Shown here in pieces: positions 38,045 through 43,226 of a DNA stretch of 64,000 nucleotides; position 1 is the stretch's first letter, and each line of letters opens with the position of its first letter. A program made the position numbers and the translations under genes. A model generated the notes under the pieces. That model saw only the letters and a program-made list of their open reading frames with translations, was not told where the DNA came from and made no database searches. Source of the DNA: an uncultured Chlamydiae bacterium (lineage in GTDB: Bacteria; Chlamydiota; Chlamydiia; Chlamydiales; Parachlamydiaceae); the NCBI GenBank assembly GCA_963754655.1, contig CAVWGN010000001.1, forward strand, positions 1,440,001-1,504,000. Reading direction: 5' to 3'.

Positions 38045-38323
38045 TCACTTCGATACATAATCTTGCATTAAAGGTCTTTCATCATTTCCAAGTGTTAATT
38101 CGCCATTGCGGTTTTTTACGATAATTTCAATTTTGCGCTCTGCATCATTTAGACGTTTATTACAAATGGCAATTAATTGATCTGCCTCTTCGTAAAGTTT
38201 AAGTGAATCATCTAAACTAATTGTGCCGGCATTAAGCTTTTCCAGAATTTCTTCCAAACGTGCAAATGCAGCTTCAAAACTAAGAGGAATAGATTCCTGT
38301 TCTTGAGTGAGATTCGCGTTCAC
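38045..38323 (-). CDS. xseB: Exodeoxyribonuclease VII small subunit
   Basis: [16 protein letters not shown]...[10 protein letters not shown]...C...L..AE.KI. Confidence 0.93.
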
Positions 38324-39812
38324 GTGTCGTTACTTCGTTGATTGTAATATTGACTTCACCATCAGACAATAAAAGTCTGGCTTGCTGTCCCTTTTCAAGC
38401 TTTGTTATTGAATTTATAACGAAAGAACTTTTTTCCGCAAATAGAATACTATATCCTTTTTGTAAAATATTTTTTGGATCAAGGGCTTTTAAGAGGTCGG
38501 ACAGATGAGAGAGCTTACGGCGGTAGAGCTTCAAATGATCATTTATTATCTGATTTACATGCTGCTTAAACTGCTCTTGATTAAAAAGGTGTCGTCTATA
38601 AGTTTGCTTGACTTGCCATAAATGATCAAGTTGCTGTCGTTTATGGGTGATCTTTTGTTGTTCTTTTCCAAGACGCTGGTCAAATTGTTGCTGTAAAATA
38701 CGCTCGCAAGTGAAAAAGCGCTGCTTGAAATAAGAAATTTGATTAGTGGGCTTTAGAGAGAAGGCTTGCTGGGATCGAGCTGTGAGTTGATGTTTTTTTA
38801 AATCCAGCAATTTCCGCTTTGCTTGCTCGATATTCAGTTTGTAGTCATCCAATTTTTGCATACGCCATTCAAGAAGGGTATAAGGATGACTGAAAATAGG
38901 GTGTTTAAACATCCCCTTCAAATGGAAAAGATGTTGCTGAATAAGATGTCTTAACGTTTGCTGGATACGTTTCCTTAAAACATTCAAATAATCCAGTTGC
39001 TGGTTTTTTTCAGCAATGACAATCTCAGCAGCAGCTGAAGGGGTAGGAGCACGAACATCTGCCACATAATCTGCGATGCAGTGATCTGTTTCATGTCCCA
39101 CTGCACTTATGATGGGAATACGGCTATGAAAGATTGCAGCCGCCACAATTTCTTCGTTAAATGCCCATAAATCTTCTAGGCTTCCTCCTCCTCGTCCAAC
39201 AATCATGACATCTACAAGTTGATAGCGATTAAACTGGTCAATGGCTTGAGCAATTTCATGGGCCGCTCCTTCACCCTGTACCTTCACAGGATTGAGAATC
39301 AGGTGAAAGCTAGAAAATCGCCGGCTGAGGACATTTAAAATGTCCTGAATCACTGCACCCGTTGGACTTGTCACAACTCCAATGCGGCGTGGAAAACGCG
39401 GTAAGAGCTTCTTATGCGTTGTTTTAAACCAACCCATTTGGTGAAGTTTGATTTTCAAGAGCTCTAACTTTTGCAAAAGTTCGCCTAAACCTACATAGGC
39501 TAGCTCGCGAACGATGAGTTGATAATTTCCTTTAGGTGGATAAACATTCAGTTCTCCTTTGATGATGACCTGATCACCACCCTTAGGCATGATTTTGAGG
39601 AAAGAGGCTTCAGCTCTAAACATGACGGCAGTAACCTGAGCATGAGCATCTTTGAGAGAGAAATACAAATGGCCAGAAGTTTGAATCTTAAAATTGCTGA
39701 TTTCTCCTTGCAGATGAATACAAGGAAAAGTCGACTCTAAACTCAATTTAATAGCATTTGTCAGTTGTGAAACAGTAAGAGGGGGCAAGTTTTGCGCATG
39801 TGAGAGATTCAT
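38280..39812 (-). CDS. xseA: Exodeoxyribonuclease VII large subunit
   Basis: [46 protein letters not shown]. Confidence 0.96.
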
Positions 39813-40659
39813 AAAGTTGATAAAATGAAGCTGCTGAAGCGTTGTAAAAAAATTTTAATTTAATTTGTGAAATTATCTTCAACTAGGGAATTCAAGCCAA
39901 GAGAAATTTTCTTTGCCCACATTTATGTTAAGGCAGTCTAGTACTCAACCACATGAGTTTTTGCCTAGTGGGATGGTTTTAAATCGCTATGCGTTAAGGT
40001 AAGAGATGGGTGTAGGCTACGCGACGCATTCAGTCGCCCGCCGCTTCGCTCTGGGCTTTAGGTGAGGGGATATGGATCCACCGTTCGGTCGCCCTCCGGG
40101 CTCGGTTACGGTGGGCTAGGATCAGTCGTCCTCTGGACTCTAGCAGCAATGTAGAAGCCATTGAATGTTAGGTAAGATGTTTAGAATGCTAGGCGAGGCG
40201 TTTTGATCATGCCGCTAGAGTCCGGAGGACGACTGATCCTAGCCCACCGTCGGGACTTAACAAAGAACTGTTTTAGGCTTGATATTCGTCCCGTCAATTT
40301 AACAATACTGCTCCTGTAATAGACTTTAGAGGCATATTTCCCGAAAATGACGCGAAAAACATCAAAGCCCAAAATAGTTCTTTTTTCAGTCCCGGCCATA
40401 CGCTAGGAACGAAATACTTCTGGCAAACTCTAGAAGCTAAATTTGTCGCTCAAGCGGCGTGAGCCGCGCATGGATAGTAGCCGTGGGTGTAGGCGAAGCC
40501 GGAACCCACGGTGTATGGTAAAAAAAATGAAGCCACGTTAGTGGCGTAGGAAATGTGATGGTGGAGCAATGTTTATTTAAACGAATGCTACGCCACTAAC
40601 GCGGCTCAAATTTTTTTTGTGGGTAACCGTGGGTTTCGGCTTGCGCCTACACCCACGGC

Positions 40660-40802
40660 CGGGACTTAACAAAGAACTGTTTTGGGCTTGATATTCGTCC
40701 CGTCAATTTAACAACACAGCGCCTGTAATAGACTTTAGAGGTATATTTCCCGAAAATGACGCGAAAAAAATCAAGCCCAAAACAGTTCTTTGTTAAGTCC
40801 CG
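40660..40802. repeat. Family E MITE (~143 bp, ~33-bp terminal inverted repeats); other copies at 40251-40394, 41314-41457 and 41571-41711 (inverted)
   Basis: Terminal repeat cgggacttaacaaagaactgttttgggcttgat and a conserved internal sequence. Confidence 0.9.
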
Positions 40803-40810
40803 GCCATAAG

Positions 40811-41143
40811 CTAGGATCGAAATGCTTCCGGCAAACTCCAGAAGCTAAATTTGTCGCTCAAGCGGCGTTAGCCGCGCATGGATAGTAGCCGTGGGTGTAG
40901 GCGAAGCCGGAACCCACGGTGTATGGTAAAAAAATGAAGCCACGTTAGTGGCGTAGGAAATGTGATTGTGGAGCAATGTTTATTTAAATGAATGCTACGC
41001 CACTAACGTGGCTCAAATTTGTTTTGAGGTTAACCGTGGGTTTCGGCTTGCGCCTACACCCACGGCTACTATCCATGCGCGGCTAACGCCGCTTGAGCGA
41101 CAAATTCAGCTTGTGGAGTTTGCCGGAAGCATTTCGATCCTAG
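40811..41143. repeat. Family F CTAG-bounded palindrome with REP-like triple hairpins; second, interrupted copy starts at 40403
   Basis: ctaggatcgaaatgcttccggcaaactcc...ggagtttgccggaagcatttcgatcctag; inner hairpins gcggcgttagccgc, ccgtggg..cccacgg, gccacgttagtggc. Confidence 0.88.
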
Positions 41144-41305
41144 TACTCGACCACACTAGTTTTGTGTATTTAGACTGCTTCAAAGCCCCGGGGTTGAATT
41201 GGCGTAAGTGGTTCCATATTGCTAATATTGAACCACTTACGCCAATTCAACCGCGGGCGCTTTCAAGCAGTCTAAATACACAAAAGTAGTGTGGTCGAGT
41301 ACTAG
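41140..41305. repeat. Family A element, empty form (166 bp)
   Basis: ctagtactcgaccacactagttttgtg...cacaaaagtagtgtggtcgagtactag; shares its left CTAG with F; homologous to 16431-17002 minus the B insert. Confidence 0.9.
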
Positions 41306-42038
41306 CCTATGGCCGGGACTTAACAAAGAACTGTTTTGAGCTTAATATTCGTCCCGTCAATTTAACAACACCGCGCCTGTAATAGACTTTAGAGGCATAT
41401 TTCCCGAAAATGACGCGAAAAAAAATCAAGCCCAAAACAGTTCTTTGTTAAGTCCCGACCCACGGCTACTATCCATGCGCGGCTAACGCCGCTCGTCGCT
41501 GAGGGAAAGGATATGGATCAAGCAACATTGCAAAAACAAAGATAAAAATTCCGCTTACCTAGCCATATGCCGGGACTTAACAAAGAACTGTTTTGGGCTT
41601 GATGTTTTTCGCGTCATTTTCGGGAAATATGCCTCTAAAGTCTATTACAGGTGGTGTTGTTAAATTGATGCGACGAATATCAAGTCCAAAACAGTTCTTT
41701 GTTAAGTCCCGGCCCACCGTGACCGAGCCGGAGGGCGACCGAACGGTGGATCCATATCCCCTCACCTAAAGCCCAGAGCGAAGCGGCGGGCGACTGAATG
41801 CGTCGCGTAGCCTACGCTCATCTCTTACCTTAACGCATAGCGATTTAAAACCATCCCAATAAGCAAAAACTAATGTAATGGAATACTAAGTAATATTTTA
41901 ATATTAAGAAGTGTTTTAATTAAAATATAAATTATATTTTATTTTTAATAAATTATTTAAACAATCTTTAAACATTTAATTTATTATATATGAATATAGA
42001 TGTTTTAAATTAAAAATATAAGGGAGAAGTATAAAAAC

Positions 42039-43226
42039 ATGAATAATGATGTAAATATAAAGAGTCTTTACGATGGGTTAGCCTCCTATACCTCTCATCT
42101 TTATGAGATTGGTCAGATTCGAGAAAACTCTTATGCGCATTACAGCAGTGAAGGGCATTTTATCAACACAGGAGGGACATGGTCTGCTTATGGGGTTCAA
42201 AAGCTAGCAAATCTTATGAAAGGGCATTCAGAAGAGGAATTAGTGACTCAGATTGAATATTTCACTAATCAACTATTTGTGAAAATGAGTCGGGACCTTA
42301 CTTTAGCAACGACAAATGATAAGAATGTCACACTTCAAACAGAATTGATCATGGAAATGCGCATTTTATCCGAGCGTATAGAGCAAGCGATCAATGGAAT
42401 AGACAATAGTGGAGGACTCCAAGGTTTAATAAAAACCTATCAAAAAAATCCTTCGTTTGTCAATAGAATCAATCAAGTCATTAAGGAATTAAAAGTGCAT
42501 CAACAGATGGGTGTAGATATAGCAGAAGAACGTCTTAATGATATTTTCGATAATCAGCCTCAAGAACTTGAAAAAGCGGTTGTCGGCGATGCCAATAAGT
42601 TTTATGAGATGCTTCAAGAAGAAAATTTTTTGTTGCCAGCTGAAAGTGTGGGGATTTTGAAATATGCGCTTAATTATACAGGGGCTCTTTATTTTAATAT
42701 TATACAGAATACATACAAAAATTATGATTGGTCAAATAAAATTGGTCATTTTGAAAATGCCGATTTAATCTTAGGAGCCTTGCCTATTCAATCCGCAAAA
42801 TATGATTCGTTAGCTGAAATGAAAGGCCAAAATATTGAGGCGGTGCTCTCTGTTATTGAGGCTTTTGAAAATCGAAGTTTTGGAAAAGTGGTAAAGCCTA
42901 TCACACCTGAGCAGCTTTCAGAGGTAGGAATCAAACAGGTTCAATTATTATCTCCTGATTTTGAGACACTTCCCTTAGAGCTTGTGGAGCGAGGCGTTCA
43001 GTTCATTCACGATAATTTAGCCAACGGAAAAAATGTGTACGTTCATTGTAAAGCAGGAAGAGGGCGGAGTGCTCTTGTGGTAATGTGTTACCTTATTAAG
43101 CACCAACAGATGTCTGCTCAACAGGCGTTTGCTTTAGTTAGAAAACAGCGTCCACAAGCAGGTTTTAGAGAAAGTGAGTCTAAATATACCACTTTGCTGG
43201 AATATGAAGCAAAGTACGCTGTATAA
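42039..43226 (+). CDS. Dual-specificity (PTPMT1-like) phosphatase with N-terminal extension
   Basis: P-loop VYVHCKAGRGRSA, LILGALP, PDF acid loop, VRKQRP. Confidence 0.85.
   Translation: MNNDVNIKSLYDGLASYTSHLYEIGQIRENSYAHYSSEGHFINTGGTWSAYGVQKLANLMKGHSEEELVTQIEYFTNQLFVKMSRDLTLATTNDKNVTLQTELIMEMRILSERIEQAINGIDNSGGLQGLIKTYQKNPSFVNRINQVIKELKVHQQMGVDIAEERLNDIFDNQPQELEKAVVGDANKFYEMLQEENFLLPAESVGILKYALNYTGALYFNIIQNTYKNYDWSNKIGHFENADLILGALPIQSAKYDSLAEMKGQNIEAVLSVIEAFENRSFGKVVKPITPEQLSEVGIKQVQLLSPDFETLPLELVERGVQFIHDNLANGKNVYVHCKAGRGRSALVVMCYLIKHQQMSAQQAFALVRKQRPQAGFRESESKYTTLLEYEAKYAV

Follow-up and report, generated by a model that had tools for sequence, protein, structure and literature searches.

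Organization of the intergenic locus

The 64,000-nucleotide stretch of DNA analyzed here (the window) corresponds to G000:C1:1440001-1504000, in a Parachlamydiaceae genome assembled as a 3.12-Mb chromosome and a 35-kb contig (two contigs, GC content 38.8%). Between the divergent genes xseA and a dual-specificity phosphatase gene, the window contains a non-coding region of ~1.95 kb (39938-41888), called the nest below, in which palindromic repeats lie inside one another. The GC content of this region is 47%, compared with 39% for the window. The nest is a real stack of mobile elements, an unusually clear case of transposon nesting that is mechanistically ordinary. [quoted passage not shown] The parts and the two adjoining genes are as follows (positions in the window).

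38280-39812, minus strand: xseA (Pfam Exonuc_VII_L, E 3.6e-100)
39938-40107, no strand: CTAG and left arm of G, a TACTC-type, CTAG-bounded palindromic non-coding element of ~490 bp if uninterrupted
40108-40250, no strand: D, central hairpin of G; the 3' base of its stem contains the target GCCCACCGT
40242-40250, plus strand: left copy of the outer 9-bp target-site duplication, GCCCACCGT
40251-40394, plus strand: E1, 144-bp MITE, left end of the outer composite, termini CGGGACTTAAC...GTCCCG
40395-40659, plus strand: left part of the outer cargo (identity with its inner counterpart 92-96%); a junction of 12 bp, the left arm of F (40407-40488), B as the central palindrome (40489-40650) and ACCCACGGC, the 9-mer opening the F right arm
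40651-40659, plus strand: left copy of the inner 9-bp target-site duplication, ACCCACGGC
40660-40802, plus strand: E2, MITE, left end of the inner composite
40803-41143, no strand: inner cargo, a complete F palindrome with B as its centre and CTAG at its end
41140-41305, no strand: A, a palindrome of the TACTC type bounded by CTAG (166 bp), which lies between F and E3, inserted at a CTAG
41314-41457, plus strand: E3, MITE, right end of the inner composite, in the same orientation as E2
41458-41570, plus strand: right part of the outer cargo; the right-hand ACCCACGGC (41458-41466), the right arm of F where it resumes (41458-41493), and segment X after it
41571-41711, minus strand: E4, MITE that closes the outer composite on the right, in the opposite orientation to E1
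41712-41720, plus strand: right copy of the outer 9-bp target-site duplication, GCCCACCGT
41721-41888, no strand: G right arm with a degenerate terminus, ...GGAATACTAAG
42039-43226, plus strand: dual-specificity phosphatase gene, 395 aa

Read from left to right, the order of the parts is thus CTAG-G left arm-D-9-mer-E1(+)-F left arm-B-9-mer-E2(+)-F left arm-B-F right arm-CTAG-A-CTAG-E3(+)-9-mer-F right-arm remnant-X-E4(-)-9-mer-G right arm. The two copies of GCCCACCGT enclose exactly 1461 bp (40251-41711), and the two copies of ACCCACGGC exactly 798 bp (40660-41457). Inverted arms were delimited with a repeat finder for G (39939-40099 and 41728-41888, 161 nt, 94% complementary), D (40108-40148 and 40210-40250, 41 nt, 95%), E2 (53 nt, 91% complementary) and the inner F (105 nt, 93%). 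The G arms, the D hairpin, the two composites with their exact 9-bp repeats and the resumed F arm had all been described in the initial annotation, and each of them was found at the position given there.

Target-site duplications and proposed order of the insertions

The comparison of the nest with its own genome gave 1174 BLAST matches, and all of its parts proved to be multi-copy. BLAST matches ending at one side of a junction were then chained with matches starting at the other side. An exact 9-bp overlap in the paralogue was observed for 77 of the 79 chained match pairs at the outer junction and, in uninterrupted F copies, for 71 of the 74 pairs at the inner one; these counts refer to match pairs in both palindrome orientations and not to loci. 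Both 9-mers are therefore true target-site duplications, being single-copy in uninterrupted G/D and F paralogues, and these uninterrupted copies amount in effect to paralogous empty sites. An uninterrupted G paralogue is found, for example, at C1:2718425-2717941. The right part of the outer cargo is contiguous with position 40659 in paralogues such as C1:1507893-1508564 (97% identity), and the outer unit without its insert is the recurring element E-F-X-E of ~655 bp. The resumed F arm (41458-41493) is identical to 41058-41093 in 36 of 36 bases, E2 together with F (40657-41143) recurs at 95-97% identity (e.g., C1:2973206-2973700), and the empty site of A, ...GATCCTAGCCTATGGC abutting E, is present at many other E left flanks.

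We consider it highly probable that successive insertions of non-autonomous DNA transposons have built a stack of four levels here, with the E units moved in trans by a transposase of the lineage of ISE, an insertion sequence (IS) described below. The anatomy, both duplications, the paralogous empty sites, the genome-wide duplications of E units, the shared termini, the membership of the transposase family and the predicted fold were shown by the analysis. In the proposed order, G with its centre D (~490 bp, CTAG-bounded) would have landed first, in the intergenic region between xseA and the phosphatase gene. E-F-X-E (~655 bp) would then have inserted at GCCCACCGT, at the 3' base of the D stem, with duplication of 9 bp, and a second E-bounded unit (E-F-E) at ACCCACGGC, at the base of the central hairpin in the F of the first unit, again with 9 bp duplicated. 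The insertion of A (166 bp) at a CTAG inside the inner unit may have preceded or followed this third step.

It could be argued that the repeated E-F segments arose by tandem duplication or homologous recombination and not by transposition, since E-F arrays in which E copies are shared and the flank repeats are poor, one of them with a 753-bp tandem duplication, are found elsewhere in the genome. A single insertion at ACCCACGGC nevertheless accounts exactly for the window, with perfect 9-bp repeats at the E termini and the resumption of F in 36 of 36 bases. Duplication or recombination would require extra steps and does not predict a single-copy 9-mer in 71 of 74 paralogous chains, and as the origin of this locus it is very unlikely.

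E-bounded composites in the genome

Seventy-two complete copies of E, each of 141-145 bp, were found in the genome. When they were grouped by their outermost E ends, 44 units were obtained, of which a flank heuristic classified 29 as clean and dropped 15. Among the clean units there were 15 with two E copies, measuring 654-660 bp apart from one of 1800 bp with an IS256-like insertion. The 9-bp flank repeats of these 15 units were perfect in eight cases and carried one mismatch in six and three mismatches in one; the 9 bp next to them, taken as a control, gave 5-8 mismatches. That no more than one mismatch was present in 14 of 15 units therefore indicates that pairs of E move non-coding cargo. 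In the ten clean units with a solo E, the repeats were perfect in four and had one mismatch in another.

E thus behaves as a MITE in all of the features analyzed: it is small, non-coding and multi-copy, has terminal inverted repeats, makes a 9-bp duplication, and shares its termini with an IS. Likewise, two complete copies bound a segment without transposition genes, and the flanking duplication is present at several independent sites. No open reading frame (ORF) with a family match was detected in the F/X cargo.

The targets of E were GCCCAGGGC, GCCCTGGGC, ACCCAGGGC/T, GCCCAGAGC, GCCCACCGT and ACCCACGGC. The near-palindrome GCCCWGGGC occurs in 89 copies in the genome, compared with ~4 expected from base composition, and 28 of the 89 abut an end of E or of a second IS, ISx (see below). 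The GCCCACCGT site is also occupied in other G/D copies, by composites in two orientations (C1:345294-345948 and C1:565212-565869) and, at C1:890161-890304, by a solo E with a perfect 9-bp duplication. Within G/D of the window, four target-like 9-mers were noted, GCTCTGGGC (40050-40058), ACGGTGGGC (40108-40116), GCCCACCGT (40242-40250) and GCCCAGAGC (41773-41781), each of which borders E or ISx insertions elsewhere in the genome.

These results bear out part of what had been proposed from the letters alone. That pairs of E move as composite transposons with non-coding cargo agrees with the 14 two-E units with zero or one flank mismatch, and the proposed insertion into REP-like (repetitive extragenic palindromic) stems agrees with targets in other repeats that are short palindromes or lie at the base of a stem (RCCCWGGGY, GCCCACCGT, ACCCACGGC). 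The unit said to have inserted into a copy of itself sits in a sister copy of the same family, and both empty sites and further E...E composites with 9-bp duplications, for which a search had been recommended, were found in the genome.

A different description of the same units is that E-F-X-E is a single long non-autonomous element with 144-bp terminal repeats, solo E copies having arisen by internal collapse between its partly palindromic E ends. The tightness of the ~655-bp family (654-660 bp) and the near absence of F without E are consistent with this, and the internal palindrome of E (53-nt arms, 91%) would make a deletion between two E copies possible. On the other hand, the E copies of the units are all complete, with neither terminus missing, and E pairs occur in both relative orientations (in the window, +/+ in the inner composite and +/- in the outer). 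The inner E flanks GCCATAGGC and GCCATATGC resemble retained halves of older E target duplications, and a perfect 9-bp duplication borders the solo E at C1:890161, whose site has served for composites too. We regard the single-element description as unlikely and prefer that of a composite bounded by two MITEs.

Two kinds of more complex E loci were also observed. In E-F arrays with three to eight E copies and poor outer flank repeats (C1:413215-416384, 725255-726404, 1987838-1988987 and 2972050-2973691), two further junctions of the E|ACCCACGGC type were found whose matching left junction is missing, besides the 753-bp tandem duplication mentioned above; these arrays probably reflect transposition followed by recombination between E copies. 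At C1:2512707-2529215, three E-F-X-E copies with the same flanks (GCCYAGAGC) start 8.8 kb and 7.0 kb apart, which suggests a segmental triplication, and one of them carries an IS256-like insertion (2512868-2514192).

The median pairwise identity of the E copies was 91%, compared with 99.65% for the ISx copies, so that the E family is older than the current ISx burst. Among the matches listed for 60 other Parachlamydiaceae genomes, none lay on E, and a search for the E terminus in species-representative genomes and metagenome contigs gave single chance matches only (5 loci in unrelated genomes and 2 loci in contigs).

Candidate transposases

The insertion sequence ISx (1846 bp, termini TGGGATGAGAAAAC) was detected in a screen for multi-copy ORFs and is present in ten copies (e.g., C1:890329-892174 and 1781574-1783419). 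In nine of the ten copies the 9-bp duplication is perfect, the sites being GCCCAGGGC, GCCCTGGGC, GCCCAGAGC and others like them. When its protein was used in a tblastn search, a distant paralogue with 28% identity was found at C1:427281-428342, and an inverted k-mer search around it revealed ISE, a single-copy IS of 1786 bp (C1:426687-428472). The termini of ISE are 12-bp perfect inverted repeats, CGGGACTTAACA, the same as those of E. Its left end matches E over 17 nt, its right end has the subterminal TTCGCGTCA box of E, and it differs from the terminal 20-mer of E by three mismatches; its flanks are GCTCAGGGC and GCCCAGGGC.

ORF2 of ISE (382 aa) aligned with the ISx family with an hhalign probability of 100% (E 1.6e-48, 354 columns). 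Its frame opens at an A8 run within the upstream ORF1, which encodes a coiled-coil protein of 123 aa, and the transposase would thus be read from two frames that meet at this run. Neither Pfam nor NCBIfam gave a match for the ISE transposase or for the 419/439-aa ORF of ISx. From its termini and its transposase, ISE is the likely master copy for the 72 E MITEs. The search for a full-length IS with termini CGGGACTTAAC that had been advised at the outset was therefore successful, and the accompanying idea of a protein-free community has to be given up, as the genome contains the parent ISE with its transposase and a ten-copy sister, ISx.

In the mechanism proposed here, E would be a 144-bp MITE derived from the lineage of the 1786-bp ISE, whose transposase would act in trans on E termini. 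Where two E copies surround a segment, the outermost termini would be used and the whole segment would move as a composite, integrating through 9-bp staggered cuts at RCCCWGGGY-like sites. Since such sites mostly lie in other palindromic repeats, the elements would pile up inside each other. We infer ISE, and not ISx or a lost relative, as the mover, as well as the frameshift, the transposition chemistry and any present-day activity.

The transposase of ISx might instead have mobilized E and its composites, by cross-mobilization within one transposase family. ISx is abundant, its copies are nearly identical (99.65%), and it has the same duplication length and set of targets as E, including the rarer GCCCAGAGC; at C1:1781421-1783419, E and ISx lie back to back and share a 9-mer. 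Their termini, in contrast, agree in YGGGA only (4 of the first 5 nt, 7/14), ISE is a far better match to the E termini, and the ISx and ISE transposases are only ~28% identical. A role of ISx as the mobilizer is accordingly doubtful, and a transposase of the ISE lineage is preferred. As an observation on the back-to-back pair, the segment C1:1781421-1783428 contains three copies of GCCCAGGGC. The 1324-bp IS256-like element of the genome was ruled out as the mobilizer, as its termini are unrelated and its duplications are of 8 bp.

The spread of these elements as REP/BIME-like palindromes (BIME, bacterial interspersed mosaic element) by a Y1 transposase of the RAYT (REP-associated tyrosine transposase) or IS200 type was also considered, as the genome has nine Y1_Tnp matches and the elements are palindromic and clustered. 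REP/BIME sequences are palindromes of 20-40 nt that lack target duplications and are associated with a Y1 transposase; here, the elements measure 144-655 bp and have 9-bp duplications, and no link of the Y1 genes to them was found. Y1 transposases are not known to produce terminal inverted repeats or 9-bp target duplications, and both were present in the E units; moreover, the IS with E termini encodes a DDE-type protein. Such an origin is hardly credible.

The ISx protein had 52 homologues, none of them named, mostly on contigs of ~1.8 kb and in Nostoc genomes, and as a single query it found no relatives among species-representative genomes. The family was present in 14 of 299 other Chlamydiota genomes searched. 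A relative in the chlamydial genome G179 (2031 bp, termini TGGGGTGTAAAC) has 9-bp duplications in 4 of 4 copies without a preference for GCCCWGGGC, so this duplication is a trait of the family.

In an alignment of 27 ISx-family sequences, D68, D142, E340 and K347 were invariant. The AlphaFold model of the ISx transposase (pLDDT 83, pTM 0.80) predicts a core of the RNase H type, into which a large helical part is inserted between the second D and the E. Its best matches in the Protein Data Bank were the DDE transposases Hermes (hAT), the P element and the IS256-type ISCth4, the top Foldseek match being Hermes 4d1q (E 2.7e-5, template modelling score (TM) 0.41). Overall, TM was only ~0.25-0.43 and identity 10-13%, and a profile search against solved structures gave no meaningful match. 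The elements of the hAT family make 8-bp duplications and have a C-terminal dimerization domain, whereas ISE and ISx make 9-bp duplications and gave no match to a Pfam domain of any kind or to NCBIfam. Neither did ISE or ISx match Pfam Transposase_mut of the IS256/Mutator group, which the genuine IS256-like element of this genome matches with E 2.1e-143. Its absence from Pfam and NCBIfam, its duplications of 9 bp and the short near-palindrome that it hits in this genome make it a candidate for a new family of IS whose target can be defined.

Points against the model and reliability of the assembly

Several observations weigh against an origin of the nest by successive ISE-driven insertions. 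The filter for clean units dropped 15 of 44 units, in some cases by error, since the internal junction motif is similar to true targets. Five of the ten clean solo E copies had at least two flank mismatches, units with three or four E copies had poor flank repeats (2-5 mismatches), and in some flank pairs, such as those at C1:1071131 and 2863831, the repeat was reverse-complementary and not direct, so that these loci also bear the mark of recombination between copies. Only two of the 81 copies of ACCCACGGC/GCCGTGGGT abut an E end, both in this window, which gives no support to F's own sites as a favoured landing pad. In addition, there is a single copy of ISE, and the close match of its ends to E extends over no more than 12-17 nt; given this short match and the age of the E copies (91% identity), the mobilizer may have been an ancestor or a lost relative. 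Finally, the nest is spanned neither by a long read nor by an independent assembly.

The last point raises the question of an artefact of assembly, in which repeat copies from different loci were chained together. The region consists wholly of multi-copy repeats; in public runs, the only one found with part of it was a soil metagenome (15% of sampled words), in which the contigs are too short to span the nest. A 167-nt contig of this metagenome, which may come from the source of the genome itself, nevertheless matches the junction of the unique flank with G (39816-39982) with 0 differences. Each component is ~3% away from its nearest paralogue (best non-self identity ~97%), the junctions lie exactly at element termini with perfect 9-bp duplications, and the genome is in two contigs. 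Such an artefact is highly improbable, and the internal evidence of the sequence favours a real locus, short of proof.

The palindromes G/D, A and F and their genomic setting

The initial annotation had counted at least five families of palindromes, a number that was not maintained. No match to a G centre without D was found (up to two mismatches), compared with 34/33 G-D junctions, and D is therefore the centre of G and not a separate insertion. A and G share termini (24 nt, 88%) and hence belong to one superfamily, and F occurs almost only between E copies, as part of their cargo.

The left terminus of G, CTAGTACTCAACCACA, is common to 78/72 termini across the genome. The A/G termini, CTAG-TACTCRACCACA, number 78 and 72, and in 69 of the 78 on the left a preceding C completes CTAG; the data are compatible with a duplication either of CTAG or of TA only. 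Elements of the TACTC type fall into size classes of ~160, 490-510, 560-570 and 630-720 bp. No parent or full-length IS with (CTAG)TACTC termini, as had also been sought, was found in the genome, the larger TACTC-bounded spans containing nested IS. Two IS5-type elements, of 846 bp (CTAG target) and ~875 bp, were ruled out as parents because neither shares the A/G termini. The ~875-bp element sits nested inside TACTC-type elements. The 846-bp one (two ORFs, DUF4096 and DDE_Tnp_1; C1:564161-565006 and ~20 other copies) has CTAG as its insertion site, which in repeated cases is the CTAG at the end of a TACTC-type element.

The core of A, a hairpin of ~95 nt (window 41168-41280), was detected in 33 of 60 other Parachlamydiaceae genomes, usually in several copies, with compensatory changes in 17 of 42 predicted pairs (ten genomes). 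It is absent from Rfam. Given this conservation, A is an old hairpin module in a lineage-specific shell. Across the whole window, Rfam gave nothing at gathering score, and at 39000-43000 only sub-threshold matches of the miRNA hairpin type. The Acido-Lenti-1 motif was not found in the window in this search; a mirror pair resembling it (36.4 bits, gathering score 37) lies at C1:2051391-2051554, in another palindromic repeat beside an E-F copy.

With regard to the surroundings, the closest named relative of a flanking gene is from a Parachlamydiaceae metagenome-assembled genome (75% amino-acid identity). In the same-genus genome G051, the start of xseA is only ~25 bp from the ATPase gene that it adjoins, compared with 3625 bp here, and the segment with the nest and the phosphatase gene is missing; both are therefore lineage-specific. 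The phosphatase gene is preceded by an extremely AT-rich leader of 150 bp (leader and gene, window 41889-43226). No Pfam match was obtained for ORFs overlapping the nest (two of the four small ORFs were searched).

Relation to known systems

The units described here are MITE-bounded composites, a known kind of element, in this case nested, amplified and with non-coding cargo. Composite transposons bounded by two Tn3-derived MITEs (TIME-COMP) have been experimentally established, and according to the accessible part of that work they likewise consist of two MITEs, in either relative orientation, around a segment without transposition genes, the whole unit being flanked by a target duplication and moving in trans, as proposed here (Szuplewska et al., 2014; PMC4133298). 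The same part describes members of the Tn3 family with 38-bp inverted repeats, 5-bp duplications, gene cargo and low copy numbers, whereas E has unrelated termini and 9-bp duplications and is thus not one of these Tn3-derived elements (PMC4133298). Here, the transposase family is uncurated, the 9-bp duplications are made at a near-palindromic target, the cargo consists of non-coding palindromes, and the unit has been amplified to at least 15 dispersed copies, one of them within another.

Insertion sequences that target REP palindromes are also known, among them IS1397 and ISPpu9, and they similarly insert preferentially into short palindromic repeats, as described in the accessible text, so that the repeats gather further elements (Tobes and Pareja, 2006; PMC1525189). 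In contrast to these, both the target-seeking elements and most of their targets are non-coding repeats in the present case. The REP-targeting IS belong to the IS3 and IS110 families and make other duplications or none. In plant genomes, nested MITEs with intact duplications have been used to read the preference and the order of insertions, and the nest resembles them in having a MITE inside a MITE, intact duplications and a readable history. The plant elements are eukaryotic, of the Tc1/mariner and PIF families, with TA/TAA targets. In the literature searched on chlamydial MITEs and nested bacterial MITEs nothing pertinent was found, and a term search of the accessible text of a 2024 review of prokaryotic MITEs (PMC10969869) gave neither "nested" nor "Chlamydia".

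Biological meaning

Both nested insertions in the window lie at the 3' base of long stems. It is conceivable, although we think it improbable, that the transposase family reads the base of an extruded hairpin, that is, sequence together with structure, and not just the 9-mer. Palindromic repeats would then serve as landing pads and E composites would seed pads of their own, in a recursive non-coding growth from a single master copy of an uncurated hAT-like transposase; if this were true, palindrome cargo with four target-like 9-mers would supply new pads for its own family.

Apart from this possibility, the nest provides a clean natural record of how two MITEs can capture a purely non-coding segment and amplify it as a unit, to at least 15 dispersed copies, one inside another, and it links 72 MITE copies to a single-copy parent IS. 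Such nests are a trap for short-read assembly and, for annotation, they explain long GC-rich non-coding islands in environmental chlamydiae.

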